64,000 bases of DNA, taken from assembly GCA_946965045.2 (NCBI GenBank), contig OX337237.1:1674001-1738000 (forward strand), in the 5' to 3' direction. Under the pieces are notes generated by a model, which was not told the DNA's origin, made no database searches, and saw nothing but the letters and a program-made list of their open reading frames with translations. This document shows positions 37,625 through 58,305 of this stretch, one piece after another. Position 1 is the stretch's first letter. The number at the start of each line of letters is the position of its first letter. The position numbers were made by a program, and so were the translations under genes. This DNA is from Epithemia pelagica (lineage: Eukaryota > Protista > Bacillariophyta).

Positions 37625-37657
37625 TTGCTTTTGTCGTTGCGCCCCGCCACTGCTCCC

Positions 37658-40495
37658 ATGTCTTCGTCCGGTTTCTCTGCTCGTGCGTCGCTTTATCGCG
37701 ATTTGCGTTCTGGTTCGCGTCCGCGTTCCGATTCCCCGGTGTCTTTTCCGCCTCCTGCTCCACCTGTGGGTCCGTCTCCTTCGGGCTCGCTTGCGGTGGC
37801 TTTCTCGGACTTAGGCTTGGGAGTGGGCGTTTCGACTGTGCAGGACTCGTCTGGGCTGGCCCCTGGCGCTCGCGCTGGTGGGTCTGCCTCGGATATGGGG
37901 GGGGATTTTGTGTCTATCCCTCCGGGCCGTTCTTTTGGTGACCAGTTCCTCGCGGACACTGGCGCCATCACGGACCCGGGGGCTAGTGTCGAGAGTCGCG
38001 AGTCTTTCTCCTACGGCGGAGGACTCTCTGACTCTGAGTTGCTCGCAGCGACTTTGCGTGCGGAAGCGCGTTATCCCGGTGATACGCGTGAGACTGCGGC
38101 TGCATTGAAGTCGGAGTCTGATCGCGAGCAATCGTCTTTGTTTCAGTCGATTGCTAAGCCGTCAACTGTGCGGGACAAGAGCCTGTTTGTGGACTACGGG
38201 ATTGCGAACTCCGCTACGGAGTCGCGTGGCGTCAAGTTTCAGTCGGACGTCAAGTCCAAACTAACGAATGGTGAGCCCCTCAATTCTAACCCGAGTGTTG
38301 TTGAGTTGCAGAATTCGGTTTCTTTAGTAGCGATAGATTTACAGACTGAAGTTTATTGTGGTGCGGTTGTGGGAGTAGCTGGAAAGTTTTGTTTGCACCC
38401 TGTGGGCAAATGCCCGAAGAAATCGCATCGCAAGGCCCCTTCGTTCCTTGGAAGTTTGAGCGAACAAGGGTTGAAGGAGTGCCTTTTCATTTGTGTCCCT
38501 GTTCCCAAGGGGAGCGCTCAGGGCACGCCGCCGACGTTGGCTTTTCAGGACCCGTTTCTTGATTCGAGTCGTCTCTCCCGTTCCAAGGTGCAAGAGATGA
38601 CGCAAACCCACAAGCCTGTCTGGCTGTGGTCATCCATGTTTGCTATGTTGAGTGGAGAGGTTCAAGGGAAGAATGTGGCCTCAATGTCCGGAGCCGGAGG
38701 ATCGTTTCCTGGCACGCCGTTGCGTCATCGGACTCTGGATCAGATTCAGGAAGATGCGACCCAGACGGCTTTTACGCCAGCTCGTCACCTGGAACTGGAA
38801 GACGTAGAGATACCATCTCCCGTGAGTGAAGGAAACGAACTTGAAGATGTAGACAGTAAGTTGGATGACACCACTTTCAAAGATCGAGTGGCTCACAACA
38901 CACTGGCCACGTCGCAAGTGCATCGAGCCATGGCGGGGGAACTTACTACCATGCGCTCTCGTCAAGTTGAGCAAAACCAAGTGCTTAACATGTTGGTTGA
39001 CAAGGTCAACGTCCTTAGTGGCCTCTTGGGAGCTCCACCGGATGACTCTGCAGCCACCACCGTCTGGCAAGCCATCAGTGAGTGGCAAGACCAAGAAGAA
39101 AAGAAAATCAATCCGGCGCTGCTCGACGCGATTCGCGAGACACAGTCTCTGCATGGGGCCAGTCTCCAACGCATGTACGAGTCGATTAACGCGTTGAGCT
39201 CGAAGATGCAAGATATGAAAACTGAGGCCCTCCACTCGTCAAGAAAGGAAGTCGTGGCATTGATCACGGCCGAAGTCAACAAGGCCATTTGGGCCGAATT
39301 ATCCAAGGCGTCTCCCACGTTGAAGGTTGCTGAGAAATTCTTTCTTCGCGGTGGATTGTCGGATTTCGAGCACCATATTCGAAAGACGACTGCGGATGCC
39401 GTCGCGGCCGCTGGGGGCAACAATGGGCAATCGTCACTGTTTAATTTGACTCAGCCAGAATTGGAAGATGTGAAAAAGCTTATTGCCAAGTTGCAAGAAG
39501 AAGGAGAACAGAATAAAATGAGGTTGATCGATTTGGAAGCGCGTACCGAAAGTTACTCTGTTGAAGTAGAGGGCTTTCAGTTCGCTTCATTGTCTCAAGT
39601 CACTGCTTTTGTGTCGTCCCATGGAATCGCTCCTGGTGTCTTAAAGTTCTGCGACGCCATCAGCCTTATGGAAAAATCGACCACGGGCTCTCAAAGCTAT
39701 GCCGAAAATGTGGACGCTCATTACCGCGGGCAACGCTCCAACATGGAGTCTCCAAGTGATCAAAAGGGTGTTTATTCGTTCCAACTGGTAGCGCCGACTG
39801 CGCTAGCCGGAACACCAGACCAAGCTCGGGTCAATCCAAGGAAGCTGTCCAAAATGGAGACATATCAAAAATTTAAGGGCTCAGGAGCCCGTGACGCAGG
39901 TGCAGCCAATACCATTCGAAAGATGATTGCGGATAAATGCCCTGCGTTGTTAGCGGAAGTTGAGAACTCGACGATGTCTCGAGACGCCAAAGTCATCGCA
40001 CGTTTTCTTCTCTCCGAATCCCGAAGTTTTCTCGACTCGTTGTTTATTTTCATGAAGGACCAGGTCGAGGACTATGGCTCGGACACCAACTTGTCCGAGG
40101 TCAGACGTTGGGACCTGGTCCAAAACATCACTCGAATCGTTTTCGAGGTCATCAGTCAGCCCCGAAGAACCTGTAGCGAGATCACTCTGAATCAGGCTAC
40201 ATCCCCGGAACGCGCACCGGAGCTTCTTTGGGCGGTGCTTCAAGCACATCGCTTGCAAAAGGAGTTTTTAGACCACAATTTTAAAAACCACCCAAAAGTT
40301 GGACCGATGCTGACACACTTCCTGCTCGATGTGGTCAGCTTCCACGACGACGTCAATCCCATTGTGGATGATGTGAAGAAGGCGCTGAATGATGCACAAC
40401 AAGCGAAGAGGAAGGTTGACGCAGTAGAAAGCCAGGTAAAGAATTTGCAATCGCGACTGCCGTCCAAGAAAACCAAACCGAATGAACAACAATGA
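37658..40495 (+). CDS. Gag-like ORF1 of element 1
   Basis: ATG at 37658. Cys/His knuckle CGAVVGVAGKFCLHPVGKCPKKSH, coiled coils, and a C-terminal FKNHP motif shared with element 2 ORF1. Confidence 0.75.
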   Translation: MSSSGFSARASLYRDLRSGSRPRSDSPVSFPPPAPPVGPSPSGSLAVAFSDLGLGVGVSTVQDSSGLAPGARAGGSASDMGGDFVSIPPGRSFGDQFLADTGAITDPGASVESRESFSYGGGLSDSELLAATLRAEARYPGDTRETAAALKSESDREQSSLFQSIAKPSTVRDKSLFVDYGIANSATESRGVKFQSDVKSKLTNGEPLNSNPSVVELQNSVSLVAIDLQTEVYCGAVVGVAGKFCLHPVGKCPKKSHRKAPSFLGSLSEQGLKECLFICVPVPKGSAQGTPPTLAFQDPFLDSSRLSRSKVQEMTQTHKPVWLWSSMFAMLSGEVQGKNVASMSGAGGSFPGTPLRHRTLDQIQEDATQTAFTPARHLELEDVEIPSPVSEGNELEDVDSKLDDTTFKDRVAHNTLATSQVHRAMAGELTTMRSRQVEQNQVLNMLVDKVNVLSGLLGAPPDDSAATTVWQAISEWQDQEEKKINPALLDAIRETQSLHGASLQRMYESINALSSKMQDMKTEALHSSRKEVVALITAEVNKAIWAELSKASPTLKVAEKFFLRGGLSDFEHHIRKTTADAVAAAGGNNGQSSLFNLTQPELEDVKKLIAKLQEEGEQNKMRLIDLEARTESYSVEVEGFQFASLSQVTAFVSSHGIAPGVLKFCDAISLMEKSTTGSQSYAENVDAHYRGQRSNMESPSDQKGVYSFQLVAPTALAGTPDQARVNPRKLSKMETYQKFKGSGARDAGAANTIRKMIADKCPALLAEVENSTMSRDAKVIARFLLSESRSFLDSLFIFMKDQVEDYGSDTNLSEVRRWDLVQNITRIVFEVISQPRRTCSEITLNQATSPERAPELLWAVLQAHRLQKEFLDHNFKNHPKVGPMLTHFLLDVVSFHDDVNPIVDDVKKALNDAQQAKRKVDAVESQVKNLQSRLPSKKTKPNEQQ

Positions 40496-43400
40496 GAAGT
40501 ACAGCGCCCATCCAAAAGATTAAAAAGGGAATCAAACACACAGGAGGAAAATCCTCTCACGGCTCTTCAAATTCAACGCAGTGAAAGCAGCAACGCCGAA
40601 ACTTACTCCTCGTGGATTCGACGCACAGTATCTTTAACACCGGGAGAGATGAGTTTGGGAGTGGTGTCAGATGGCATGCCTGCGTGGCTGTTTCTGTCTG
40701 ACAATTTGACAAACAGCAAACTCAAGTGGTTAATGTTGCCTGACAACCAACAACACTGGGAGAATTTGATACCGGTTGGACTTGAAGTTCATTGGTTGAC
40801 AGCAAGCGAAGAAAGTGAATGGAACCTGCGGTCTTTGGAAGAAGCGCTGGGACGATGCCCTGCAACCGACGTGTTGGTGTTTGAAGGGAAATACAGACCA
40901 CCCAGGGCAAGCTCCAACTTTTGGGACCGAGAAACAAGGTTGATTGTATCACAGCGGACACCAAGAGGCAAAGCACCGCCTGGATGGGACACCTCGTCTC
41001 GAGCTCTCAGTCACCATGAATTAGGGGGTGTGACCAATTGGAAGAGTTATTTTCATGTCTGGATGCGGTCGGCCGAATCATAATGCGACCCGAAGGAATT
41101 TTGGAACTCGGACTTATTGCATGGGGCCAATAGTTCTTTCGGGGATCTTATCGACAAGACAAAAACGGGAAAGCGAGTGCACCCTGATCGGGAAGAGGTT
41201 TCGATTCCCGGAACGGTGGATTGTGCTACAGTTCAAAGAAAACGAAGAAAGTTGTGGGTCTTACCCACAGTGTTTGGAGTCAACGCTGCCACCAGAAGGA
41301 AGTTGCTGGTTACAGAGGCTACTGCGTGCCTTGATGTGCCGGTCTCTTTGATCAAAGAATTGAATGAACCCACTCGGGAGGTTATTGTTCGTGAATTGTC
41401 CGGGCCTATCAAAGTGGCAGCGACAGTAGGAGCATGCATCGTCGAGTGGGCGAGAAAGAGTCGTAGACAAGAGAGAACAACGGAAGCAGGAGCAGCGTCT
41501 CCACAAAAAGAAGAAACAGAACTCATCCCTGATGAACCAAACGGTCGAGAAGCAAGATCGGTCTACCATCGAGATAGAATGCGAGGGTACCAACGATCTG
41601 CAAGTGAAGGCCAGGGCACTACCGCGGAGAAGGCAGTCAAACATGACAAAGCCGCCGTTCCGGTAGAATTATGGGACGATCGGGTTCGATATTTGTTGGG
41701 TCTGTCCAAATTGACGGATCGCCATCTGCGAGCTTTCGCGTTGTTACGACGAGCGATGTTGCAGCGATGGAGGCGCAACGTTGTTCGCTCGTGGGTTGAT
41801 TGGTGGAACAAATATAATCATAGAATAAAACATAATGAACCGCGATGGTGGAAGCTTTTGCAAGAGCGAGGTCGCCAAGCTTGTCGTCAAGCGATGCAGG
41901 CCGATTTTTGGAGTTGGCCAAATGGGTCAGGTGTATTCTTTTGGCGGTGGCCACAAGAATACATGCGTGATGTTGCCTTGGGAGTACCTCCTCTGTGGAC
42001 AGGTGTACCTCGGCAAGTGTTGGAACGACAACAAGGCCTTGGCGATGAAGAAATGATAAACAAAATAAAAGAGAAATTGGACGATGTTCGCCAGAAGAAA
42101 TATGTCAGCGAAGGAACCTGGAAGGCAACCATGAACTACTTTGCGGTGCCGAAAGGAGAGACGGACATAAGAATGGTGTATGATGGAACCAAGAGCGGTC
42201 TTAACGATTGCTTATACGCACCTTGGTTTCCTCTCCCAGATGCCGACGTCTTGATCCGTACCTTGGACGATTCCTACTGGTGTGTAGATAACGACTATGG
42301 AGAAATGTTCTTAAATTTCTGGATCCATCCGGAACTACAAGAGTTCAGCGGAATGGATCTCACACCACTATTTGGGGAAACCGATTCGGGGGAACTTCAT
42401 ATTGAGGGGTGGCTCCGTTGTCCTATGGGGCAGAGTCCGTCTCCTTTCAACACGGTACAGCAGACGCGGCGACTCAAGCGCGTTATGTTGGGTGACCCGA
42501 GTGACGAAGAAAACGTGTTTCGATGGAAGAAAGTACGATTGAATCTACCCGGAACGATGAGCTACCAACCCGGAATTCCCTGGATAGCCAAGTACAGATC
42601 CACGGGAGAGTTGGCAGCCGATGCCCATGATTATGTGGACGATCTACGAGGAACTGGTCCCACAGCCGAAGATGCCTGGCAAGTAAGTTCTAAGATTGCC
42701 AAAACAGCGTCGTTTCACGGCGTACAAGATGCGGCACGTAAACGACGAGAGCAGACACAGAGTCCGGGAGCATGGGCTGGAGTAGTCTGTGGTACCAGTC
42801 CTCGTCGTCCCTTCAAAGCTGTGACCCAAGAAAAATGGGACAAGACGAAGGGAGAAATAAAACGTCTACGCGATGAAGTGGACAACCTGGAGATGGCCGC
42901 TCCTAAAAACACTGTTAACAGCAAAGTCCTTGAACAGGTTGCAGGGTTTTTAAATCACATCGGCCGAGCTTATGGAACTCTACGGCTCTACCTCAATGGA
43001 GTATATGCATCCTTGAACAGTTGGAGGCCTGATCGAGACCACGAGGGATGGAAGATCGGCTCTGACACATTGCATTTGGAAGAGCCCTTGGGCCTGAAGA
43101 CGCCAGCCCGAGTTCGAATGGTGCCCCGAATGCGATTTGATGTCGAAGCTCTGGAGTTGTTGACCAGCAGCTCTACCCCTCCTCAGAGATTGTTGAGGCC
43201 TGACAAACAAGGCGCCGTTGCCCGGTATTACTTTGGTGATGCCTCGGGAGCTGGCTTTGGCATGTCAGGGTGGACACCGGGTGAAGACCAAATCGAGGTA
43301 GATTTCGGATCTTGGGATGCCAAAGCAATGGATTGGACTTCTTCCAACTTTCGTGAATTGGCCAACATTGTAATGAAGATCGAGCAAATGGCAAAAGAAG

Positions 43401-44227
43401 GCCGTCTGAATGCGTTGACGGAAACCTTCATTTTTACCGACAACATGCACGCGGAGTCGGCATTTTATAGAGGGACTGCGAAGTCTCCCGAAGTGTTGCA
43501 CCTCATGCTCCGGTTGCATCGAGTCCTGATGAGAGGAGAGGCGTTCATTCATGTCGTTTGGGTGGCTGGGAAAAGGATGATATCCCAAGGCACCGATGGA
43601 CTCTCCCGATCTGATTTGACAAGCGGAGTCATGCGAGGTGAAAGCATGTTGAACTTTGTTCCGCTTCATCAGTCAGCTCATCAACGTCAACCCAAAGTAC
43701 TCTCGTCCTTGTTGCGCACCATAATCGACGACACCGACGATGTACGCGTCTTGAATCCTGAGGACTGGTTCACCCAACCAGCCGAAAGGGATGGCATATT
43801 TGTGTGGATGCCTCCGCCGTGTATTGCCGATGTGGCAGTCTTCATGATGGCGGAGGCATGGCATCTTCGTCCGTGGAATACCCATGTTTTCATTGCACCG
43901 TCATTGATGAGTGGAACGTGGAGGAGGATGTTGTCCAAGACGGCGGATATGTTTTGTGTTCTGCCGTTTAATAATGAATTCTGGCCCAAAGATTTGGAAC
44001 ACGAACCTCTAACGTTTGCGTTCGTATTCCCCCTTTTGAACAGAAATCCTTGGCGAGTTAAGTTCTCGGAGCTTCTCCGCGATGAACGAAATGTCTTGCG
44101 TCAGATGCACCGGAAGTCTCTCCCACACGCGAGGGATTATCTGCGCAAACTTTGGCTATGCGCGCGGGCACTGGAAGCCATGCCTGGGGGCGTATCACGC
44201 TCATTGCTATGTAGTACCGGGAACTGA
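40496..44227 (+). CDS. Pol of element 1 (MTase-like, Trp-rich, RT, RNase H, Dam-like), with one internal TAA
   Basis: Same frame as gag. RT motifs DNDYGEMF, MGQSPSPF, YVDD (42632); RNase H GDASG, NFREL, FTDN, DGLSR; WMPPP block. Track ORFs 40649..41083 and 41117..44227 are one frame split by the TAA at 41081. Confidence 0.9.
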
Positions 44228-45620
44228 CCCCTTTCCTAGAGACCTCCAACCTAGACAAATGGAAATGGATGCATTTGGAAACATGGTGCCCGAAGCTGAG
44301 GGATGGGAGACTACAGCTACTGAAAAGAAGGCTCTGTCTGAATGGTTTTGTCAAGCTCGCCCGGGAGATCATCTAATGACTCCGTTCCAGTGTGAATTAT
44401 GTCACTTTAGAAATATTTACAAGCGTGATCCGGTACCGACGAGCGAAGAAGACAAGTGGTCGCTCAAGTGCATGATACGAGCGAACCTCGATGCCTTTTG
44501 GGCGCGACGTTCGAGCACAGTGCAAGGTAATACAAGGGAAATGGCGAGATCAATGCGCATTCTCGCCACACTCCGGATTCCATCTCCAACGACTGTTCAC
44601 CGGCGAGGACCTTACCCGATTGAAGACACTCTTGGAATGGTACCAGCGATGGTTTCGCTGCAACGGTCGCTAGACAAAGGAAGAAATTCAAAGACGATCC
44701 AGTGGGACACAATGAGAGGAGTACGATCCTCTTTCTCAAACTTTGTTCATACAACACTCACCGGGAGCAAAGGAGCTGTGTTGAGTGATGGGAAACGCTC
44801 GACCAGGATTACCGATAGTGTGGCAAACTCCCTCTGGTTCAAGCGCTTTATGGATGGATGCCATGAGCGCATGGGAGATGTCAAGATACAAGATGCCGCG
44901 CTGACAATTGATGTGTTATTGGAGCTCGAGAGATGTTTGGAGGAAGAATTTCAACGAATGGACTCAAACAGTACCATGGAAGTCCGATTCGAAGTGATCA
45001 CTCTCGGCGCGGCTTTGGTCCTGGGATTCTCAAGTGCTCTGCGTGGCGAAGAACTGGGTCATATCCGGCTTATGGAAAGTCGAGAACTGACCGCAAGGGG
45101 ATTGAATCATCCGAGGTACCCTCATGTCCTCTTAGCCCTTGAAGGAAGGTTCAAGGGATTGATTGCGAGACAAAGGCATAAGATTCCGCTAGCACCAGTG
45201 TCTCAGTCAGGAATTCCGAACGAAAAATGGTTATTGCGATTGGTTGAGCTTTATGATGATCTAAATATCAGACATGGACCTCTGTTTCGTGCCACCCCAC
45301 GGGGAGATAAATCAATCACCATTCAACAACTGGATTTGTGGCTGAGTGAGACCTTGATGGCAGTACAAAAGCAGAGGCCAGATTTGTTGGGAACGGAATT
45401 GGAATCTCTGGCTACTTACAGCTTTCGGAGATCCTTGAGAAGAGGTTCCACCACCCAAGCGAGAAATCAGAAGGTTCCAAAAGACGTCATTGTCATCAAT
45501 AACCGGTGGAGGTCTCAGGACCAGGCTCGAGGACGCTTCGCACAAGCCGACATGATCGATCTGTATACTGATGTGGTAGCAGCTTTGGCCACACTACTTC
45601 AATACTCAACCGCATTATGA
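44082..45620 (+). CDS. Tyrosine recombinase of element 1 with an N-terminal Cys-rich region
   Basis: ALRGEE (Arg at 45042), RSLRRG, NRW, and a terminal DLY (Tyr at 45564). It overlaps the pol 3' end in another frame. Confidence 0.88.
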   Translation: MNEMSCVRCTGSLSHTRGIICANFGYARGHWKPCLGAYHAHCYVVPGTDPFPRDLQPRQMEMDAFGNMVPEAEGWETTATEKKALSEWFCQARPGDHLMTPFQCELCHFRNIYKRDPVPTSEEDKWSLKCMIRANLDAFWARRSSTVQGNTREMARSMRILATLRIPSPTTVHRRGPYPIEDTLGMVPAMVSLQRSLDKGRNSKTIQWDTMRGVRSSFSNFVHTTLTGSKGAVLSDGKRSTRITDSVANSLWFKRFMDGCHERMGDVKIQDAALTIDVLLELERCLEEEFQRMDSNSTMEVRFEVITLGAALVLGFSSALRGEELGHIRLMESRELTARGLNHPRYPHVLLALEGRFKGLIARQRHKIPLAPVSQSGIPNEKWLLRLVELYDDLNIRHGPLFRATPRGDKSITIQQLDLWLSETLMAVQKQRPDLLGTELESLATYSFRRSLRRGSTTQARNQKVPKDVIVINNRWRSQDQARGRFAQADMIDLYTDVVAALATLLQYSTAL

Positions 45621-45678
45621 AAGAAGGAGAAAAGATTTGCTGAGAAGAATTTTATCAAGACGATACGGGGGGGGGGGA

Positions 45679-46109
45679 AAGGAGTGTACTCGTACACTCT
45701 GTCGTTTGCAAACCCACTGTTGGAGGATGACGGGGTTCGGAGTTATTGGGGTTCTGGTTTGCTTGCACTCTGGCAGGTGCTTGCAAAGTGGACAGTGATA
45801 GCGGAGGTTCGCCCCGCGTGCTGACTCGTGATTCGTCTCGAGGACCACCGGCTTCGGGACTCAGAATTTTCTACAGGGGGCGAGAGCAAGACCAATCTTG
45901 ACAGCGATTGGTTTGCGTCGATTTTGATGGCTGTTGCACTATGATGTGACTACCCATCGCTCCATTGGGAAGGAGTTCCCCTTACCTTAGCACAATATAA
46001 TCTAGGATTGTATGTGACACATCCCAACGTCTAACATCAAGACCTATTGCCACACTGGTTGAAGAGTTGGAAGAAGTTTTGGACATTCATCGGAGAGGAG
46101 TCAAGTGCC
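45679..46109 (+). repeat. Repeat B1 (431 bp)
   Basis: Matches 46389-46629 plus 55371-55560 with 2 mismatches seen (45710/46420 and 46087/55538). Confidence 0.95.
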
Positions 46110-46364
46110 TTACTGTGCTTAAGCTAATTTGGCGATTGCTGACAAGAAGATGAATGAACTGACACATGACTGACTCAGAGACCAAGAATCAAAGGACCAA
46201 GCCCAACCAGATTCGTACGTATGTTGAATCAAGAAGATCTATCACCTTTGGTGATTTGGTTGGGATCGAATGTTGATCGGGTCACTGTCTTTCAGGTTGA
46301 TTGTTGGTTGAGGTGCTATACGTTGCAGGTATTGTATCTCTCCTTGTGATCATCTGTTTTTGTT
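46110..46364 (+). repeat. Repeat A2
   Basis: Copy of 37300-37554, directly abutting B1. Confidence 0.95.
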
Positions 46365-46388
46365 TTCCACCCTCCCGCCCTGCGTTAT

Positions 46389-46629
46389 AAGGAGTGTACT
46401 CGTACACTCTGTCGTTTGCGAACCCACTGTTGGAGGATGACGGGGTTCGGAGTTATTGGGGTTCTGGTTTGCTTGCACTCTGGCAGGTGCTTGCAAAGTG
46501 GACAGTGATAGCGGAGGTTCGCCCCGCGTGCTGACTCGTGATTCGTCTCGAGGACCACCGGCTTCGGGACTCAGAATTTTCTACAGGGGGCGAGAGCAAG
46601 ACCAATCTTGACAGCGATTGGTTTGCGTC
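46389..46629 (+). repeat. Repeat B2, left part (241 bp)
   Basis: Copy of 45679-45919, ending at gtttgcgtc. Confidence 0.95.
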
Positions 46630-47147
46630 TCAATGTACACCCAAGTTAAGATGGGACCAAGGAACATGGTCAGGCCACGTCATGAAGGCTGAGCATTGGC
46701 GTTGGAGTGCAAGTCGGGCGGTCCACCCAAAAGAAGAGCCGGCCTCGCTGTCACACAAAGAATGAGGCAGAACGGGCGTGCAACTCGGAAGAGGAAATTC
46801 CAAAAAGAACATGTGCATCCCATCTACTGCGACAAAGCCTCTTCCATTCCATATCTCAAAGTGGACTGCCTCCAAATAGAGGATCGTCCGATTCAAGAGG
46901 CATGGGCACTCTTGAATCAAACAACAATGCGCCAACAATGGATCCCTAATGGAGCGCGACATGCGATCCATGACAAACAAGCAAAGACGCAGCAAACAAA
47001 ACAAGAGGGACACGGAGAGCTCACTCTTTGGGTTTTCTACGGTTCGTCGGCGAAGGTCTGATCCCCTTTGGCGCCGTTCTTGATTTCTAAAGAGTTGAAA
47101 CTCCAACTTTCTCTGCTCACTTCGCTCTCTTACTTACTCCTTCTACC

Positions 47148-49604
47148 ATGTCGGTTCCTCCTCCTCCTCCTCCTGCACAGGATGCTGATACGCTCCTCTC
47201 TGCGCTCGTTGCTTCGGCCTCCGTGGCTAACACCCCTGCGGCTGGGGCCGCCCGTCCTTCTACGGCGGCTCTGGGGGGGGATCGCGGTCAAATCTCCTTT
47301 GCTGCTGACCCTCCCACGGATGAGATGATGGTTCAAGGCACGGAAACCGCATTGTTTCCTGAGAGCACCATGGACCCTACTGTCCTTGGACGCTCTACCG
47401 GTGGTAGTAAGTTTGGTGTCGTGGCACTTTGCGCAAGCGAATGTGCAGACAAGTTGTTGTGTTTGGATCTCAAGCGCGGCGGGGCAACCTTTTGCATCGA
47501 CCCCAAGTGCGCTAAAGCCGGGGACCATGGAACTGGTCTAGCTCCCGTCGACTTGGGACCCTCAGGAGGATTGTTCATTACCAAGAACCCTGCCTCTGCC
47601 TTTTGCACTCCGGTTATCTCGTTGAGTGAGATCTCTCAGGAGACACTGGACCAAGTCCAGCATGAAAAACACACTATGGAAGAATGGACGAAGAAATTCG
47701 TTGCTATGAAACGTCTTAATCAAGTTAAGAAAGAAGGTCACCTGGATGCCAGTCTGAAGGAAACGGAGCATAAAATCTCCAAGGCTGACTCCCTCCGTAC
47801 CCCGTTTACACTCAAGAAAGCTACCTCTACCTCCACCTCCTTCGTCGTTGAGAATTTCTCTCCTCACCACAAGATTTTGGACGGGGATCTACAGGATGTG
47901 ATTCGGAAGATTACGGTTGACTCCTCCTTGGTTCCGATAACTCTTCGCGAAATCGAAGACTCGGTGATGGAAGCAGGAGAAGTGATCCAGACTTTGTCCT
48001 TGGAACAACAAGCCATTTCGCGTCAAAACAGCACAGCCGTTGAAGCTCTAGGAATCAAATTTGATAAACTGTCCATGGAAATTGGACCTCGAGAGGACTT
48101 GCCGGACGAGTACCAAGCCCCGACCCTCTGGGGAATCATCTCTTCGATGATTCGTTCCATTCAAGAATCCTCTCCCTTGACGACTGAATCTCACCAACGT
48201 GCTGTGGATAGTCGCCTTGCCGCGGTTGAGTCCTCTGTTGCTACTTTCTTCTCAACCATCCAAGGCCAAGTCTCTTCGAAGTTGTCCTCGACCCAAGTTG
48301 AGACTCGTAACTCGGTAGACAAGCTTCGAAACCAATTCGTGCAAGGCTTCAAAGGAATCCTCGATCGCTTGTCGGCCCTTGAATCCAACACGACGCTCAC
48401 CAACCGTATCTTGACCATTGAAAACAAGATGTCGTCCCATGAAATTTTGCTTAGCCAACTGGGAACCTCCCCGCAGATGTTTGGTGCAACACAGACGACA
48501 TCCAACACAGGATCACCAGCCCTTCAAAACAAAGTCACTGCTCTTGAAGGGGAAATCGCGAATTTGAGGGCCCTCTTGGGAGATGCCAATTTGGAAATGC
48601 AACGTCTCAAGGGCAAGGTCGACACTTCCACCATCAAGTTCGGAAATCTCGGCGTAGCAACGGTTGATGACTGCAAAGCCTGGGTGGCCCTCAAGTTCGG
48701 GTCAAGAGCGTACGGTCTTTTGTTTGATCTCAACTTGGTGCTTGAATGGTGTGCCCCGCAGGAGAATGGGGATGTTTTATCCATGCTGACTACCATGGAA
48801 AAACGACACAAGATGCAGATCGCGACAACAAATGAAGCTCGAGCGATTTATGCGATGAAGAATGAATTTCCCCAGCTCTTGTACAAAGATTTCCCTGGCA
48901 CCGGGCGGGACCCTTCGTTTCTCACTGCGATGAAAGAGTACTCGGATTGGGAGTCGCCCGAGACGGGAGTTCGTGACCGAATCCTGAATCGTCTAGGCAA
49001 CATGAATTCTATGTTCGGAGAACAAATTGCCACAACGATGGCCAATGAACCTGAAGCCCGTTCCTTAGCTTTATCTATGCTATCTGTTTCGGTGGGTTGT
49101 TGCCGTGAATTGGTAACCTATTTTGATGAAACCATGAATGAACTCACTATCAAGTCGAAGTTTACTACCCGCAAGGCCTTCAGTTTGGTTACCCAAGTGG
49201 TCAGGCGCTTCTTCATGGACTTATACAAGGTTAGGGCTCAAGTCTACTCGTCCCTTTCGACCACTGATAGTGCTGGCCAGTGCGCATGGATACTCTACGG
49301 CGTTCTTCGTACCCACGATGTTATGAGCGATTACGTTGAAGCTCGTTTCAAGAACCATCCGTCCGTTTCAAGCGAATACATTCGCTTCCTTTCCACCAAC
49401 TCGGGCTTCGAGTCCCTCAAGACGCTAGAAGATCAAGTGGAATCCTTGAAGCGTACCTCTGCTCAGTTGGTCAAAGATGTTACCTCGGCCAAGAAAGCTT
49501 CCGACACGGCCAGCAGCACTGTGGACAGTGTCAAAAAGGATGTGAACGAATTGAAGAAACAAGCCCAGCGTCGTGGTGGATCTACCAACGGTGACAAGAA
49601 GTGA
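47148..49604 (+). CDS. Gag-like ORF1 of element 2
   Basis: 818 aa. Knuckle CLDLKRGGATFCIDPKCAKAGDH, coiled coils, FKNHPSV. Confidence 0.78.
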   Translation: MSVPPPPPPAQDADTLLSALVASASVANTPAAGAARPSTAALGGDRGQISFAADPPTDEMMVQGTETALFPESTMDPTVLGRSTGGSKFGVVALCASECADKLLCLDLKRGGATFCIDPKCAKAGDHGTGLAPVDLGPSGGLFITKNPASAFCTPVISLSEISQETLDQVQHEKHTMEEWTKKFVAMKRLNQVKKEGHLDASLKETEHKISKADSLRTPFTLKKATSTSTSFVVENFSPHHKILDGDLQDVIRKITVDSSLVPITLREIEDSVMEAGEVIQTLSLEQQAISRQNSTAVEALGIKFDKLSMEIGPREDLPDEYQAPTLWGIISSMIRSIQESSPLTTESHQRAVDSRLAAVESSVATFFSTIQGQVSSKLSSTQVETRNSVDKLRNQFVQGFKGILDRLSALESNTTLTNRILTIENKMSSHEILLSQLGTSPQMFGATQTTSNTGSPALQNKVTALEGEIANLRALLGDANLEMQRLKGKVDTSTIKFGNLGVATVDDCKAWVALKFGSRAYGLLFDLNLVLEWCAPQENGDVLSMLTTMEKRHKMQIATTNEARAIYAMKNEFPQLLYKDFPGTGRDPSFLTAMKEYSDWESPETGVRDRILNRLGNMNSMFGEQIATTMANEPEARSLALSMLSVSVGCCRELVTYFDETMNELTIKSKFTTRKAFSLVTQVVRRFFMDLYKVRAQVYSSLSTTDSAGQCAWILYGVLRTHDVMSDYVEARFKNHPSVSSEYIRFLSTNSGFESLKTLEDQVESLKRTSAQLVKDVTSAKKASDTASSTVDSVKKDVNELKKQAQRRGGSTNGDKK

Positions 49605-52600
49605 CGGTGTGCCGCGCCTAAACTAGATGAAAACGTTTCGTATGTTGACTCTGGTTTAGACGCTGGTAGTATTGCATCATCTTTAAGCAGTCTGGGACCT
49701 GGCTCTCCTGGTGGTGTTGGTGCCAAACGTCCAGCCTCACCACCCCCTAGCATTGTCGTTTCGGTCAAACGCTCCAGGCATCGTCCTACTGATCGCGGAT
49801 CACGGATCTTCCGAAGTGATTTGTCGTGTCTTATCCTTGGTCAAACATCCCTTTCGTGGGGACTTGGTCTCAGTCTCGGGGACTGGCACGGCATTTACAT
49901 GTTGGCTGCTGAGTATGAAGCACGACGAGAGAACCCCTTTTGGCGTGCCGTTTTGCTTCATTTTGGGGATAAGCTCCACTTAGTCCCAAGCATCGATGTT
50001 GTTCTGGGACGAGGGATCATTTCGGTTGTACTGTTGGAAGGCGATCCTGATTACCTCGCGTCTTCCTTGCTTTTCGTCCCTCCGAGTTGGCCTGTTTTAT
50101 TGTTGCTTCCTTCGGGATGGAGTCGCCCCACCCTTCCTCAAGTCCAATGGTTGTCGGTCACCCATCGTCAATGTGGTGGTGTCACGACCGCTTGTGTCCA
50201 CGTTGGGCGTCGTGGTATACCTCCGTTGTTTTTCCATGTCACCACGCGGCGCACGCTGGGTTCGATCATCTCGCATTCAATCCGTCCTTCCCCGTGTGGG
50301 GCGCCCACTATCCCTGATCCTTATTACTCCTGTGACGATCAGTTGCACACCCGTGCTCTTTTCAAGTCTATTCGGTTGTCCACACACTTTTCAAAGACGG
50401 GTTGGGGTTGTCGTCCGCTTACTGATGAAGAAATTGGAACGGCGTTCGATTTACCGCTTTGGGTCATCAATGATTCCATTGCTTTTCGTTGGTGGTTCTC
50501 CCACATGATTCATCCGCGAGTTACTCCCATCAAGATCCCAGCTTTAGTGTTGAATTCCGCTTTACCACACTTGGACCCTGTTCTGATTCACCACACTAGT
50601 ACCGCCGGCAACAAACATGGTGGACCCTCATCCCCGTTTCGTCCCTGCAAACGCGGCCGTTGGTTGACCCCTCTTTCGGAAACTGTCCAAGATGGCGTCC
50701 TGGGTACCACCTTTTCCTTCTTGCCCGCTTTTCTCCCTCATGACGCGTGGCTCGACGATTCCAAGATTGCGGATATTGCGGTTAAGGCAGACGACGCCCT
50801 GGCCCCTTTTTGGATTTGGGATGGGCGGATTCGGGGCATCTACCCTTGGATCACAGATTCGGCGCTTTCAGGCTTCCGCTTGTTGGCTTTGCTTTGGTGG
50901 CGTCGCTCCTTGGTGCAGAGTTTCTTGGCTTATTTACGCTTGCGGTTTGGTGCGAATTGGCCAGCCTTAGTGGCCTCTTCACCACTCCAGGGGGGGGAGG
51001 AGTCTTTCAATTTCGATTCGTTTCCCGTCCTGCTAGCCGCTGGCCGCTGTGTTTTGTCCCAACTTCTTCGTTCCACCTGGTGGGACTGGGATGCGGGTTC
51101 TTCGTTGATTTTTTGGCGCTGGAACGGCCTCTCCCAACAAGCAGATGCCTGGTTTGGCACTCCCATCCATGTCACCGATGCTCTTCCTTCTTATCATCGG
51201 CGTCAGCGTGCTCCTCCTGCGGAAATGCTCCCTCAAGTTTCCAAGAAATTATCGACCGTGCTCGAGCGTGGTTATTTGGACGGTGTCTCTCCTCCCTCCA
51301 GCATGACCGACTATTTCGCTGTTCCAAAAGGCGACAATGACATTCGGATGGTCTATAATGGCACAAGCTGCGGGTTGAATAAGTCTCTGTGGGCACCGAA
51401 TTTTTGGTTACCAACGTCTGAGTCGGCTCTACGACTATTGACCACCGATTCCTACTGTGGGGACATGGATTTGGGGGAAATGTTTTTGAATTTCCCCATG
51501 GACGTACACCTTCGACCCTTTGCTGGTGTAGACATGAATCCTGTCCAGTCACACCTCACCCCAGAAGCTACAGCCCTCTCTCCTGAATCTGGTAGGGTGC
51601 GGTGGAATCGTTTATTTATGGGTATGCTTCCGAGTCCGTTCCACGCCGCCCGCCAATACTACCTGGCTGAGGAAATAGCAAAAGGAGCATCACAGGATCC
51701 AACCAATCCGTGTGGTTTTGATTCAATTCGCTTCAACATCCCTGGCTCCGCCGATTACACCCCAACTTTGCCTTGGGTCATGAAGTGGAGCTCTAGACTC
51801 GACAACATTACGGGAGATGTAGTTACCTACATGGACGACTTGCGAACGGTCGGTTCCTCAGCCGAACATGCATGGCAGGTGGCACGCCAACTGGGGGCTA
51901 GATTGCAATATCTAGGAATTCAAGACGCACCTCGAAAGCGGAGACCACCTTCCAAAACTCCCGGCGCATGGGCTGGCAGTGTACACCATATCTCAGCCAC
52001 GACCATATCAAAAACCCTCACCCAAAAGAAATGGGACAAGGGCAAGAAACTCCTGGAAAAATACGTGGATGCATATACCAAGAGTGACTCTCCCACGTTC
52101 GATCACAAGCAAATGCAACGAGACGTGGGCTTCTTCGTTCATCAAGCGCTGACCTACAATTCGCTAATGCCCTTCTTAAAGGGATTCTATTTGACTATGA
52201 ATGTTTGGAGACCCGGGCGCAATGGCGAGGGATGGAAGCTGTCAACAAGGGAGTGGCTTTCCCAGTTACAAGAAAAGTTTGGGGACGAAGAAATCAACAC
52301 CATTTGTGGTTTCTTAGACACAGATGAAGATGAAGACTCGCATGCAGAATCAACCAACAAAGAAAAGGACATTCCACCAGCACGGGTCAAGGCAGTTCCG
52401 AGGCTGCGAACCGATGTACGAGCCATTGCGGTCATGCTAGGTTCAGAGGATCCTCCCAAGGTCCAAGTCAGGTCGGACACCATCTTTGTTGCATTATTCG
52501 GATGTGGCGATGCTTCGGGATGTGGATTCGGGGCAGCCTTCCAACTCCCTCAAAAGAAACTGTCGTATAGAGTGGGAGCATGGGGAAAGGACATCGTGGT

Positions 52601-53531
52601 AGGTGAATCTTCCAACTGGAAGGAGTTTACCAACTGTGTAGAGTCGCTGGAGGAAGAAGCGTCCTTGGGCCATTTGGACAACACAGAAGTCTTCTTCTTC
52701 ACAGACAACTCAACCGTCGAACGTTGTTTCTACAAGGGCTCATCATCAAGCCCAAAACTGCTAGAACTAGTGATCCGTCTACGACGACTAGAGATGCGCC
52801 ATGCAATACGGCTGCATATCTCCCACGTATCAGGAAAGAGGATGATCGCTGTGGGAGTGGATGGCATTTCTAGAGGGCAATTGAACGAGGGAGTCATGGC
52901 TGGGACTCCCATGTTATCCTATATTCCTCTTCACAAGACCCCATTCCAGATGTCCGAGAATCTGTTCGAATGGGTTCGTTCTTGGTTGGGACCCAAAGCA
53001 GAAGCACTAACCCCCATGGACTGGTTCACAACAGGCCACGACATCCGGGGATGGTCCCTCCCAACAGAACATAACAAACTGTCCCTGCCTATCCTTCGGC
53101 CAGGACATTTTGTGTGGGCTCCGCCTCCAGGAGCAGCTGATGTGGCTCTCGAGGAATTGAGAAAAGCGCGTCACAAAAGACAATCTTCCATGCATGTTTT
53201 TCTTTGTCAACGTCTGCTTACTCCGAAATGGTATAAGCAGTTACACAAGGCATGCGATTTGGTTATGGAGATCCCTGCTGGAACTTCTTTTTGGCCTGAA
53301 GGAAATTATGAACCTCTCATCGTTGGTCTTGTTTTTCCTTTTATTAGGGCACAGCCGTGGCAATTGCGGGGCACCCCAAAAATGTTCTCAATGGACCGCC
53401 AATTGCGCAAATTGTGGAAAGAAGATCCAGTGGGTGGAAGGGATCTTCTGCGGAAATTTTGCGTTCAGTGTTGGAAAATGCAGTCCATGTCGAAACGCAT
53501 GGTGCGCAAGTTGTTATTCTTCGAACGATGA
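49605..53531 (+). CDS. Pol of element 2 (MTase-like, Trp-rich, RT, RNase H, Dam-like), intact
   Basis: Open frame directly after the gag TGA. Motifs DMDLGEMF, MGMLPSPF, YMDD, GDASG, NWKEF, FTDN, DGISR, WAPPP. Confidence 0.92.
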   Translation, partial: RCAAPKLDENVSYVDSGLDAGSIASSLSSLGPGSPGGVGAKRPASPPPSIVVSVKRSRHRPTDRGSRIFRSDLSCLILGQTSLSWGLGLSLGDWHGIYMLAAEYEARRENPFWRAVLLHFGDKLHLVPSIDVVLGRGIISVVLLEGDPDYLASSLLFVPPSWPVLLLLPSGWSRPTLPQVQWLSVTHRQCGGVTTACVHVGRRGIPPLFFHVTTRRTLGSIISHSIRPSPCGAPTIPDPYYSCDDQLHTRALFKSIRLSTHFSKTGWGCRPLTDEEIGTAFDLPLWVINDSIAFRWWFSHMIHPRVTPIKIPALVLNSALPHLDPVLIHHTSTAGNKHGGPSSPFRPCKRGRWLTPLSETVQDGVLGTTFSFLPAFLPHDAWLDDSKIADIAVKADDALAPFWIWDGRIRGIYPWITDSALSGFRLLALLWWRRSLVQSFLAYLRLRFGANWPALVASSPLQGGEESFNFDSFPVLLAAGRCVLSQLLRSTWWDWDAGSSLIFWRWNGLSQQADAWFGTPIHVTDALPSYHRRQRAPPAEMLPQVSKKLSTVLERGYLDGVSPPSSMTDYFAVPKGDNDIRMVYNGTSCGLNKSLWAPNFWLPTSESALRLLTTDSYCGDMDLGEMFLNFPMDVHLRPFAGVDMNPVQSHLTPEATALSPESGRVRWNRLFMGMLPSPFHAARQYYLAEEIAKGASQDPTNPCGFDSIRFNIPGSADYTPTLPWVMKWSSRLDNITGDVVTYMDDLRTVGSSAEHAWQVARQLGARLQYLGIQDAPRKRRPPSKTPGAWAGSVHHISATTISKTLTQKKWDKGKKLLEKYVDAYTKSDSPTFDHKQMQRDVGFFVHQALTYNSLMPFLKGFYLTMNVWRPGRNGEGWKLSTREWLSQLQEKFGDEEINTICGFLDTDEDEDSHAESTNKEKDIPPARVKAVPRLRTDVRAIAVMLGSEDPPKVQVRSDTIFVALFGCGDASGCGFGAAFQLPQKKLSYRVGAWGKDIVVGESSNWKEFTNCVESLEEEASLGHLDNTEVFFFTDNSTVERCFYKGSSSSPKLLELVIRLRRLEMRHAIRLHISHVSGKRMIAVGVDGISRGQLNEGVMAGTPMLSYIPLHKTPFQMSENLFEWVRSWLGPKAEALTPMDWFTTGHDIRGWSLPTEHNKLSLPILRPGHFVWAPPPGAADVALEELRKARHKRQSSMHVFLCQRLLTPKWYKQLHKACDLVMEIPAGTSFWPEGNYEPLIVGLVFPFIRAQPWQLRGTPKMFSMDRQLRKLWKEDPVGGRDLLRKFCVQCWKMQSMSKRMVRKLLFFER

Positions 53532-54918
53532 GGGTCGGTTCTTTGTGGCTTCCAGGAACTTGATGGTGGAAGAGTCGGACGCGGACCGGATCGTAGCAGC
53601 CACTTGGAGAGCGCGTACAAAGGACCGACGAGAAGATTATAGTCATGCACGAGCGGGTGATCACTTGATGACCCCTTTCGAGTGTGATTGGTGCATCTTT
53701 CGAAAGTTGAGAGGTGAGGAACCGGACCCGAAAAGCGTGCAAGACAAGTACTTGATGGTGTGTGTGAGACGCATGAATCTCGATGCATTTTGGAGTCGGG
53801 CAACAAGCACGGTTGCGCAAAACACTAGAAATGCCAAAAAGATGATTGAGAAGTCAATGAAAGTGGGAATCCCTTATGGACCGTTCATGAGCCATGGCCC
53901 GTTCCCGAGTTACGATCATTGTGGGTACCAAGTGGCATATTTGATGTTGGACAGTTCGTTGGACGAAGGAAAGTATCATACGGATAGAAAGCAATTTGAC
54001 ACCATCCGGAAATTTCGATCGGTGTACTCCAATCACGTGAGAGCAACACCGGCCACTTTGGTTGATAATCGACCCCTGGTTTTGACGGACAATAATGGGA
54101 AAGCCTTCTCTCGGTTGGGCCAAGACGAGAGCGGATCATTATGGTTTTCAAGATTTGTTGAAGGTTGTCGCCGACGGATGGGCCAAGACTGGCGCCCGGA
54201 CCAAGCAATATCTAGCGAGTTGGTTGTTGCGTTGCTGGGTTCCTTGGAAGAAGAATTGAGGCACGCAAACAATGTGACGGACCCATTTGTGACGGTTATG
54301 GCGGGAACCTTTTATGCTGTGTCTTTCGCTTTGTCCTTGAGAGGGCCGGAGGGGCTGCTCCTTGATTTAGGAGCCATGACTCGATATGCAGATCTTTACA
54401 AGGACCGGGATTGCGTGGTGGTTTGTCTTTGGGGCCAATTCAAAGGCGAGCATTCTGAACGGGCTCATCTCCTCCCCTGCTGCAATGTAACAGGGAGTGG
54501 AATCAAAGTTCGCCAATGGTTGAACAGAGCAATGGTCTTGTCTCGAGACATTGGACGAACGACCGGGCCGTTGATGATGGATCGAAAGGGTGTACCCATC
54601 GCGCCACGAATGCTGGATGACATCCTGCATCGACATTTGTGCAAACTTTTCGACAACGATAAAAACCTTTTTCCTCTGACTGTCATCAAAGGGGAAGAGG
54701 ACATCGTCACAAAATACTTTGTGTTCCGATCTTTCAGACGGGGTTGGAATACAAGAGCAAAAGAGGTGGGCGTCGAGCAGCCAGACCTTGAAACTGTCAA
54801 CCGATGGAGAATAAAGGAGAGAGCAGGAGCCAATAAACCAGGCGGGGCCATTGACCACATGTATGCAGACCTGTCGATGCTTGTGGGGCCGTTTCTCCGG
54901 TACAGTTCTGCAATGTGA
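53194..54918 (+). CDS. Tyrosine recombinase of element 2 with an N-terminal Cys-rich region
   Basis: SLRGPE, RSFRRG, NRW, terminal HMY. It overlaps the pol 3' end; the true start is uncertain. Confidence 0.88.
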   Translation: MFFFVNVCLLRNGISSYTRHAIWLWRSLLELLFGLKEIMNLSSLVLFFLLLGHSRGNCGAPQKCSQWTANCANCGKKIQWVEGIFCGNFAFSVGKCSPCRNAWCASCYSSNDEGRFFVASRNLMVEESDADRIVAATWRARTKDRREDYSHARAGDHLMTPFECDWCIFRKLRGEEPDPKSVQDKYLMVCVRRMNLDAFWSRATSTVAQNTRNAKKMIEKSMKVGIPYGPFMSHGPFPSYDHCGYQVAYLMLDSSLDEGKYHTDRKQFDTIRKFRSVYSNHVRATPATLVDNRPLVLTDNNGKAFSRLGQDESGSLWFSRFVEGCRRRMGQDWRPDQAISSELVVALLGSLEEELRHANNVTDPFVTVMAGTFYAVSFALSLRGPEGLLLDLGAMTRYADLYKDRDCVVVCLWGQFKGEHSERAHLLPCCNVTGSGIKVRQWLNRAMVLSRDIGRTTGPLMMDRKGVPIAPRMLDDILHRHLCKLFDNDKNLFPLTVIKGEEDIVTKYFVFRSFRRGWNTRAKEVGVEQPDLETVNRWRIKERAGANKPGGAIDHMYADLSMLVGPFLRYSSAM

Positions 54919-55370
54919 CGACCAAACCAAGATTCTCGGTGGAGGGGGTTTCTGGAACTGGCAAGTTGCGTTGAGGCTGACATGGCAAGGCCTCTTCGGT
55001 TCTTGTCCATTAGAGAGAGAGTTTGAGCCGATTGCGTCCCCTGTCCGTTTCCGCCTTTGCGATTGCATGGTGCAACCTGATCGCGTTGGTGGGCCACAAG
55101 CGGATCCAACAGGAGTCTTGATTTGGGTCTTTCTTTTTGTTCTTTTGGGCCGGTTCCCCTGTCTGAGCATTATGCCAGATCGGACCCTGAGTGGTGAAGG
55201 ATTACCCTTCCCCCCACAACACAACCTAAACTAGAGTTTACGGTTGCGAGAATCTAATGAGATAAGTTTATGATTTGATTCTGCTGTTTGTCTTTGTGTT
55301 TGCGCGAGAGAAAGGGATCCTGAGGTTGGATGGCGACATGGTGGGTGCTGAGCAGGGTTTGCGAGTGCCC

Positions 55371-55560
55371 GATTTTGATGGCTGTTGCACTATGATGTGA
55401 CTACCCATCGCTCCATTGGGAAGGAGTTCCCCTTACCTTAGCACAATATAATCTAGGATTGTATGTGACACATCCCAACGTCTAACATCAAGACCTATTG
55501 CCACACTGGTTGAAGAGTTGGAAGAAGTTTTGGACATACATCGGAGAGGAGTCAAGTGCC
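55371..55560 (+). repeat. Repeat B2, right part (190 bp)
   Basis: Copy of 45920-46109 with one mismatch. Confidence 0.95.
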
Positions 55561-56002
55561 AATGTTCGCGCTTCGCGCGCGCGCTCATCGCTTGTCTCCC
55601 TCGCAGAAACAGAAGGACATGGTTTTCCCAGCCATTCCTTTCCAGTCAGTGTATCTCAGACACGTTCGGAATCCTGAGCGTTTTCAATCATCTATGGAAA
55701 GACAAACTGGATCTCCCCGATCAATCAAACTGACTAAGAAGAGAAGCGAAGACGTCATGAGAGCGCTAAGGAGCAAGGTTGTGTCCATCTTCAAGATCTT
55801 GCCACTTCTCTTTTCTTGGCGCCGATCGGATATTATTACGAACGACGAATTGTGAACCTTTCGTGACTCTGCCGTGGACTGTTGATTGTCCAAGTGTTTG
55901 ACAACTTCGTTGCGCTTCGTAGCTGTGCGATCCCTTCTCACCCATCAACAAGCACACTTGAGTTGATATCTCATACAACAATCTCATTTATACCAATCGC
56001 AA

Positions 56003-57063: not shown

Positions 57064-58305
57064 TCACTTCCGTACAACCTGGAGGGCAAGCAATGCGGTG
57101 ACCACCAGGGCAGTGTAGAGGTTTATTGGGTGACCGTACCAGGTCCTTTCTTGACGCTTCTTGACCGCTTCTGCCATAGCAGCTGACGGATGGTGGAACT
57201 GCTCAAACAGCCGAACTAGATTTCGTTCCAGCATGGCTACAGTGACTTTCCCCACCATGGGGACATACACAACTCCTGGAATTTTTAGAAGACTTTCTTC
57301 ATCGACATTTTTATAGCTTGCAACGTTGACGACAGTTGTGTTGGGTTGAATCCACTCGGAAGGTAAAACATATGACTTTGTCGGGACACCCGTAATAACA
57401 ATGGACGACTGGGAAGCACGCAAAGATGATAGGTATCAGAAATCGGACAAAATATCATCACTTTTTCCACGGTCTGATGCAGAGTAAAGATTGACCTACC
57501 TTGCGAACGCATGATTCAGGAGTTTCATTCTCACAGACGCGAAGTCTTCCCCCGGAGAAAACATATATGGAGTTGATGTCAATGGAGTAGACTTCGGCAC
57601 CGTCATTCGATATCATGGCAGCCAAAGGGCGGCCCACAATCTCGGAGCGATTGATCACCGTGACAATCTTCCCTTCCATTTGTCGACCAATCTTTTTCCT
57701 GTCACAGCATCCAGGACACTGTTCAAGGATCTTCATGACGGAAAGAGAAGTACATGGCAGAAGGCATTTTTGTGTATTTGCTGGATAATCCAAAAATCGA
57801 ACATTGCGATAAAGATTGGTTCGGTAGGTGTGACACAGGCCCTCTACATCGCACTTGAAGCTGATGGAGTCTCTAAGGAAATCATCATGGCTCTCCCCTG
57901 AGAACGACTCGATCTGGCCAAAGATTGGATAATACACAATGATTCCGTGAACACGAGGATCGTCGTTTGCATCCATGAGAGCATTCTCCACGTCGATCGG
58001 GTCCTCCAGGGTACGCAGTTCGTACCGAAGGCCATCGGCCTTACAGGCTCGAGCTGTCCATTCAGCGTATTTCTTGGCCGCTGGGTCTTTGTTGGCTAGC
58101 AACCCAACCAAAAGTGGAGCATCTACAAAAAGTAAAAAGTTGCTTTTAGACCATGTCACATGTCACGCTTAGTTCCTTGTGATATCAATTTACCTATGCC
58201 TTGTCTCTTCAGTTCGGTTACTTTCTGCTTGATTTCATCACGAAATGGCTTGGCCACGACGCTTGCATCGATCTTAACCCCTTTGCTCGTATCAGCCACT
58301 ATCAT
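57064..58305 (-). CDS. MTD1: Methylenetetrahydrofolate dehydrogenase (FolD family, NAD-dependent MTD1-like), 3 exons
   Basis: Exons 58305..58194, 58122..57500, 57408..57064. Motifs VHGIIVYYPIF, CDVEGL, LLPCT, VINRSEIVGRPLA, VGKVTVAMLERN. Confidence 0.88.

Follow-up and report, generated by a model that had tools for sequence, protein, structure and literature searches.

Candidate UGA readthrough at the gag-pol junction of a PAT-like tyrosine-recombinase retrotransposon from a diatom

Introduction

The production of Gag-Pol by reading through the stop codon of gag is already known in murine leukemia virus (MuLV), and the type II readthrough sites follow an established design in which UGA-CGG is followed by a spacer of 8-9 nucleotides (nt) and a stem (PMC3159437; the articles cited here by their PubMed Central numbers are represented by parts of their texts, to which our statements about them apply). 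In the present study, we analysed a stretch of 64,000 nt of DNA from Epithemia pelagica (contig OX337237.1, positions 1,674,001 to 1,738,000 of the forward strand), hereafter called the window, in which all positions below are counted unless a locus is named. The window carries two tyrosine-recombinase retrotransposons, designated element 1 and element 2. We propose, with a probability of about 80% judged from sequence conservation, that programmed readthrough of the UGA codon ending the gag gene of element 2 would yield a Gag-Pol protein of 2127 amino acids (aa).

The type II sites of alphaviruses and of the tobravirus and furovirus replicases resemble the gag-pol junction of element 2 in their UGA-CGG, their 8-9 nt spacer, their stem of 10-14 base pairs (bp) and their variable loop (PMC3159437). 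They belong to RNA viruses, their readthrough has been tested and their CGG or CUA is conserved, whereas the CGG of element 2 is not conserved across the family and its site is a predicted one. MuLV makes Gag-Pol by readthrough, as proposed here, and it has an 8-nt spacer and a pseudoknot to which the structure predicted below for a large clade of relatives of element 2 is similar (PMC3159437, PMC2194720). It differs in its UAG stop codon, its protease and its DDE integrase, whereas the stop codon of element 2 is UGA and its structure a simple stem-loop. Tca2, a Ty1/copia element of Candida albicans, shares the in-frame gag-UGA-pol arrangement and a predicted 3' structure, but it is a long-terminal-repeat element and its study used no family-wide evidence of frame or covariation (PMC2194720).

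Among the retrotransposons with a tyrosine recombinase, the PAT group shares with element 2 the split direct repeats A1-B1-A2-B2, the reverse transcriptase (RT) and RNase H, a methyltransferase (MT)-like domain past RNase H and a separate, overlapping recombinase open reading frame (ORF). Compared with the PAT group, element 2 has an additional N-terminal C5-methyltransferase fold, and an in-frame gag-stop-pol arrangement goes unmentioned for PAT in the part of the text concerned (PMC4157794). The Ngaro group shares the split direct repeats, the order gag, RT-RNase H and tyrosine recombinase, and the occurrence in a stramenopile (PMC3783388, PMC8547959), but it is defined by the absence of the MT domain (PMC3783388), which element 2 appears to have. 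By analogy of design, the closest known relative bearing a DNA methyltransferase (DNMT) is SymbioDIRS-Dnmt3 of Symbiodinium, which shares the A-coding-B-A-B repeats, a cytosine methyltransferase domain in Pol and a separate recombinase ORF; its domains are reported to be able to methylate, whereas element 2 has no visible catalytic Pro-Cys (PMC5890265).

Pol expression and the control of the Gag:Pol ratio are barely described in tyrosine-recombinase retrotransposons. Our search of the open-access literature revealed no paper describing readthrough in diatoms, or between gag and pol in DIRS, PAT or Ngaro elements; subscription papers, Repbase entries and supplements may note the in-frame stop. 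In the parts of the texts concerned, readthrough goes unmentioned for DIRS, PAT and Ngaro elements (PMC8547959, PMC8226300), the word "readthrough" is not used for the Ngaro junction (PMC8547959), "stop" has no occurrence in PMC3783388, and neither "diatom" nor "readthrough" occurs in PMC5890265.

The gag-pol junction of element 2

The label gag is used here in a positional sense. The gag frame of element 2 (47091-49604) and its pol frame (49605-53531) have the identical phase, with no further stop between them. A preliminary description of this DNA had reported that gag ends with AAG-AAG-TGA-CGG, the TGA starting at 49602, that the frame then stays open for 72 codons into pol, and that the first ATG of pol (49899) lies inside a methyltransferase-like domain. 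The end of gag was as described. The conserved Pol domain starts about 57 codons downstream of the gag stop, and the first in-frame ATG is codon 99, approximately 41 residues into this domain; the figure of 72 codons fits neither value, which leaves the claim unaffected. Under the reading proposed here, automatic annotation would cut Pol short, by starting it at the internal ATG within the first domain.

The stem announced 9 nt downstream of the stop is present in the sequence, with 13 of its 14 positions paired, including one G-U (Table 1). Its predicted stability is high in comparison with shuffled sequences, the z-score being -4.67 for 49611-49666 (none of 200 shuffles was equally stable) and -3.60 for 49605-49675; wider windows were not significant (z -1.42 and -1.59). 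The 70-nt window starting directly past the gag stop ranked first among the 514 fixed windows of the element coding region. No pseudoknot was predicted for the element 2 copy (score 23, threshold 24).

The subfamily comparison relied on three runs belonging to a single study, which consist of contigs whose kind is unrecorded, and on a test stretch of 501 nt. Two other subfamilies aligned to this stretch only at the pieces 49590-49621, 49592-49675 and 49592-49691, all of which lie around the stop codon and the stem. In the subfamily with both arms readable, differences were found at none of 18 arm positions and at 10 of 22 loop positions (Fisher p 0.0008). Since the changes within about 30 nt of the end of a piece go unlisted, the TGA itself is uncheckable in these subfamilies. 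Within the clade of element 2, the stems did not align in sequence (MAFFT).

Conservation of the frame and of the stop codon

A search with Pol gave 320 homologues, and an alignment of 58 of them led to 433 metagenome loci, the best 80 of which were analysed (L numbers). Sixty loci could be scored by means of one profile for Gag and another for the first Pol domain, four more were read from their ORF layout, and 16 of the 80 have no junction. Loci L071, L072, L073 and L076, for which the Gag or first-domain profile call failed, stand outside the cluster statistics, and L017 was omitted from alignment A5. Among the 64 junction-bearing relatives, a single in-frame stop is present in 57 (TGA in 55 and TAG in 2), four have pol in the -1 frame and three are of another or broken layout.

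The conservation of this arrangement is supported by the following observations. First, the gag stop is the sole stop ahead of Pol, in the same frame, in 54 of the 60 profile-scored loci (52 TGA and 2 TAG), while the four loci read from their ORF layout comprise three in-frame TGA and one out-of-frame TAA. The two TAG belong to L028 and L032, and TAA was never seen at an in-frame junction; L023 and L060 combine TGA with a later one-base offset, and their sisters are in frame. Second, clustering at 80% RT identity gave 33 clusters, 29 of which are in frame (both elements of the window included). The nearest RT relatives of element 2 among the loci are 48% identical to it, and frame and TGA persist down to about 40% RT identity. 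Third, by cluster, TGA makes up 28 of 29 gag stops, as compared with 15 of 28 recombinase stops and 16 of 31 pol stops, and an RT tree of 46 tips shows a single change in the gag stop versus 12 changes in the recombinase stop and 12 in the base following the gag stop. Fourth, the spacers between the stop and the first domain (87-426 nt) contain no in-frame stop, against 94 and 156 stops in the other two frames. The preliminary description had named the loss of the frame or of the stem as findings that would count against its reading; among the relatives, frame and TGA proved to be retained family-wide, and the stem forms an island of nucleotide conservation in the close subfamilies.

Our scan found no relatives in viral contigs or prokaryote genomes, and a weak search found no protein of 1433-4090 aa related to the C-terminal half of Gag, the maximum length among the best 120 homologues of Pol being 1507 aa. 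Out-of-frame TAG was not enriched after the stop across the clusters. In L071 (349-6537), gag ends with TAA and Pol is spread over two frames, an arrangement that matches neither the in-frame nor the -1 layout.

RNA structures downstream of the stop codon

The structure downstream of the gag stop differs between clades. In the clade of element 2, the stop is TGA-C in six of eight loci. In a large clade of other relatives, the predicted design consists of a short stem 7-12 nt past the stop, the loop of which could pair downstream, followed by a hairpin of 6 bp. This clade is the largest one and comprises 42 loci, all of its junction-bearing members being included. Between the stop and the hairpin, every one of them has a distance equal to 1 modulo 3, over 10 lengths ranging from 40 to 70 nt, which indicates that the first codons past the stop are under frame constraint and behave as if they were translated. 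The hairpin covaries, its positions being 99% paired, with two-sided changes at five of the six pairs in 36 sequences. As for the pseudoknot stem, the pairing of the loop holds at 5 or 6 of 6 positions in 34 of the 42 loci, versus 23% of swapped subgroups. In a blind scan of this clade, a pseudoknot was predicted directly past the stop in 30 of 35 cases, as compared with 3 to 9 for each of five control offsets and 13% of the shuffles. A second conserved structure may sit about 93-183 nt past the gag stop in this clade (for example in L038-L052).

On the RT tree, the four loci with pol in the -1 frame belong to two distinct branches. They have a stem 0-3 nt past the gag stop, with z between -1.6 and -2.6, preceded by homopolymer runs that look slippery (A_AAA_AAG in L068), and they would be candidates for -1 frameshifting. 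With pol in the -1 frame and a stem behind the stop, these relatives suggest that the constant is a Gag-Pol fusion.

Two sequence motifs of the element 2 stem were also considered. The 11-mer at 49617-49627 is repeated at 55225-55235, which we attribute to chance, since the relatives often show matches of 9-12 nt, with no link to the 3' end. An AAACTAG-like motif (K-L-G/D in frame) occurs at 49620-49626 and in L002, L026, L049, L058 and L062, at 15-40 nt past the stop; it recurs in the clade of element 2 despite the non-aligning stems, and it could be a protein-level feature, a structural one or a cryptic splice acceptor.

Proposed mechanism and alternatives

From the single in-frame stop, the conserved hairpin and the layout kept by most relatives, ribosomes are likely to read through the gag UGA. 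The Gag-Pol fusion through UGA recoding in a diatom, put forward in the preliminary description, is thus supported by the conservation of frame, stop and stem. We propose that a near-cognate tRNA occasionally decodes the UGA, at a low rate. By analogy with alphaviruses and MuLV, the stem located 9 nt downstream would aid this event, as it would sit at the mRNA entry channel of the ribosome when the UGA is in the A site. The products would be mostly Gag (818 aa), together with a small share of Gag-Pol (2127 aa), and readthrough would set the Gag:Pol ratio and carry Pol into particles.

More generally, the sequences point to a conserved recoding site, at which readthrough by a known mechanism is predicted in a host group that is new for it, together with stimulatory structures of several kinds. 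We lean, by a little more than even odds, towards the following picture. A diatom PAT-like group, with a dead cytosine-methyltransferase fold fronting Pol, would produce Pol only as Gag-Pol through three interchangeable recoding devices (UGA with a long stem-loop; UGA with a MuLV-like pseudoknot and hairpin that has no need of a C at position +4, the base following the stop; and -1 frameshifting), and it would be the first case of readthrough described in tyrosine-recombinase retrotransposons. The proposal offers a precise mechanism with dozens of natural variants. If it is true, programmed readthrough extends to diatoms and to a further order of retroelements, and the relatives, where readthrough structures seemingly work without the usual +4 C, constitute a natural library of new RNA structures that stimulate readthrough.

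Several observations weigh against this proposal. The 80 loci come in large part from few assemblies and are kin by descent. The UGA-CGG context emphasized in the preliminary description is present in this copy, but it is not conserved, as only L073 among the 57 in-frame relatives has CGG next to the stop and no relative has CUA there; the alphavirus-type context is therefore particular to this copy. More broadly, C is a minority at +4 by cluster (C 10, G 9, T 9 and A 1; n=29). In the fixed windows used for the fold z-scores of clades and clusters, the 3' window lies below -2 in 6 of the 29 clusters, an equal count being obtained with a window that straddles the stop, and z is -3 or lower in only three of the six distinct members of the clade of element 2. 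As regards the element 2 stem, the listed subfamily changes include no compensatory change, and the one at 49622 would disrupt one pair if no unlisted change makes up for it. There is no strong stem behind the gag stop of element 1. Some close Pol relatives are predicted with an upstream start. The pseudoknot of the large clade is only probable, because the scan at the control offset +93 scored 23 of 35. Lastly, the gag-UGA-pol junction of Tca2, with its putative pseudoknot, gave by itself no readthrough in a Saccharomyces cerevisiae reporter (PMC2194720).

The main rival of UGA decoding is the production of Pol by reinitiation, by a non-AUG start or from a weak promoter inside the element, close to the junction, with the stem acting in that process. 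Tca2, where this is seen in part, provides a precedent, its Pol deriving from the gag-pol RNA (PMC2194720; restated in PMC7175516). An in-frame ATG is present in the spacer of 12 of the 29 clusters, and the 3' context is weak or absent in many relatives. Yet such a route has no need for pol to keep the frame of gag or to be open from its first codon, nor for a fixed TGA or for insertions and deletions limited to multiples of three in the first 70 nt, and 17 of the 29 clusters have no in-frame ATG ahead of the first domain. Because it leaves the conservation of frame and stop unexplained, we regard this route as improbable. UGA decoding by the ribosome agrees better with the codons next to the stop, which behave as translated ones in view of their open frame and their spacing by multiples of three.

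The excision of the stop by a short intron, with Gag-Pol translated from the spliced and Gag from the unspliced RNA, is in our opinion very unlikely. An in-frame GT...AG excision (49591-49626) is possible in element 2, but at 36 nt it would be very short for an intron. Furthermore, L002 has GTAAG, CTAAC and TTTAG over 57 nt, and YTAG is found past the stop, in the same phase, in several members of the clade of element 2. Nevertheless, an in-frame GTRAG...YAG excision of at least 50 nt is possible in only two of the 29 clusters, not in element 2, and donors are not enriched ahead of the stop. An intron would also release the distance from stop to acceptor from the rule of multiples of three, whereas this rule holds.

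We attach equally little credence to an alteration of the stop on the RNA (A-to-I editing turning UGA or UAG into a Trp codon) or to its reading as selenocysteine. The in-frame junctions do show TGA and TAG, never TAA, as either process would allow, and the stop can fall within the base of the stem in element 2 and in one subclade. However, selenocysteine is excluded at the TAG variants L028 and L032, and no selenocysteine insertion sequence (SECIS) or other Rfam family reached threshold in 37000-56000. We know of no ADAR-type editing in diatoms, and the -1 lineages point to ribosomal recoding instead. As to the in-frame stop having arisen by accident in this copy (through a nonsense mutation in a single gag-pol ORF or a chance phase) with a stem used for packaging or reverse transcription, stems can indeed serve other roles and the copy, which has no A2-B2, may be inactive, but this most unlikely reading is already largely refuted by the persistence of frame and TGA to about 40% RT identity and by the absence of a continuous gag-pol ORF from all 64 junctions.

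Structure, domains and classification of element 2

The features of the two elements and of the relatives are collected in Table 1.

Table 1. Features of elements 1 and 2 and of the gag-pol junctions of related loci (positions refer to the window or to the named locus).
Feature	Position	Strand	Remarks
Element 2, tyrosine-recombinase retrotransposon	46630..55369	+	Inside B2 repeat of element 1; repeat pattern D2/D3
A repeat, element 2 (inferred)	46630..47111	+	Double contig depth; joint 47111 to 54947
gag-like ORF	47148..49604	+	818 aa; ATG 47148; TGA end; homologous to first ORF of relatives
Nucleotide-conservation island	49590..49691	+	Common to two other subfamilies, same organism; flanks unlike
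Candidate readthrough codon TGA, then CGG	49602..49604	+	Preceded by AAG AAG; TGA in 55/57 in-frame relatives
pol ORF	49605..53531	+	1308 codons; same frame as gag; first ATG 49899
Spacer, 9 nt	49605..49613	+	Can lengthen stem by pairing with 49664-49675 if no ribosome on top
Stem, 5' arm	49614..49627	+	Single listed change, at 49622 (one subfamily of the two)
Loop, variable	49628..49649	+	10 listed changes in 22 nt; in frame, gap-free in subfamilies
Stem, 3' arm	49650..49663	+	No listed changes
N-terminal Pol domain, predicted C5-cytosine methyltransferase fold	49776..50576	+	Structure model pLDDT 92
Reverse transcriptase core, divergent	51426..51929	+	RVT_1 E 0.078; E 1e-5 in relatives P0015, P0033
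RNase H	52473..52883	+	Fold match Z 9.6, root-mean-square deviation (rmsd) 3.2, 122 aligned; Foldseek E 3e-4
C-terminal domain resembling adenine-N6 methyltransferases (DIRS/PAT MT domain)	52923..53441	+	PCIF1 Z 7.7; Dam Z 6.4
Tyrosine recombinase ORF	53161..54918	+	Overlaps pol in another frame; invariant R, K, R, W, Y in 26/26
B repeat, element 2 (inferred)	54947..55369	+	Public contigs
Element 1, second tyrosine-recombinase retrotransposon	37298-46629 and 55370-55560		Full A1-B1-A2-B2; interrupted by element 2
Element 1 gag TGA, then GAA	40493..40495	+	In frame with own pol
Probable pseudoknot and covarying 6-bp hairpin	L038:2641-2735, L007:3059-3153, L029:2784-2878, 39 other loci		Mostly without +4 C
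pol in -1 frame	L068:2144-2335, L069:2146-2492, L077:2346-2435, L078:2579-2630		Candidate -1 frameshift sites

The empty-site joint, 46628 to 55370, is present in public contigs. The copy of element 2 in the window has no terminal A2-B2 and no self-repeat. Split direct repeats A1-B1-A2-B2 were found in element 1 and in the relatives L032, L037, L038 and L069, and those of element 2 are deduced from contig depth and from a joint. Long inverted repeats, as in the DIRS1-like termini, were found neither in element 2 nor in the 39 loci of at least 8 kb.

The methyltransferase-like label given earlier to the first Pol domain is backed by its predicted fold, the top Foldseek matches of which are DNMT2, M.HaeIII, M.HhaI and DNMT3A (E 3e-6 to 5e-5). 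In an alignment of 24 sequences, no column corresponds to a conserved catalytic Pro-Cys, and this family-wide fold may be, as modelled, a dead DNMT used for binding. The C-terminal Pol domain matched PCIF1 (rmsd 3.2 over 116 aligned residues) and Escherichia coli Dam (rmsd 3.0 over 98). Its Z values against PCIF1, Dam, T4Dam and DpnM (5.2-7.7) are middling, and it has no Pfam Dam match. With its MT-like domain, its split direct repeats and no inverted termini, element 2 fits better in the PAT group than in the Ngaro group, as judged by the group descriptions and by a modelled MT fold of middling Z.

The recombinase has no direct Pfam match and no match to a PDB sequence, and searches of PDB sequences with the Pol, domain and recombinase profiles likewise gave no match. 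Its Atlas neighbours at 0.94-0.95 carry Phage_integrase on 18-29% of their members, and ALOG too. The overlap of the recombinase ORF with pol measures 370 nt, and the relatives differ greatly in where the first ATG of this ORF lies; a look at a single conjectured donor motif revealed no shared signal. Near the N-terminus of Gag, a Cys/His-rich stretch (47430-47520) is a possible zinc-binding motif.

Element 1 and neighbouring sequence

The last B repeat of element 1 breaks off at 46629 and resumes at 55370, on both sides of element 2. The recombinases of the two elements are 31% identical. The pol gene of element 1 holds a later in-frame TAA (41081-41083), which probably disables this copy.

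The host gene near the element (57461-58126) found no placement in the Atlas. The named matches among its best 120 homologues are diatoms, in agreement with the host initially assumed. A tandem duplication of 72 nt occurs in element 1 at 37481-37626. Upstream of element 1, the region 34000-35054 contains tandem repeats with a period of 105-114 nt, and an inverted repeat of 44 bp lies at 34965-35054.

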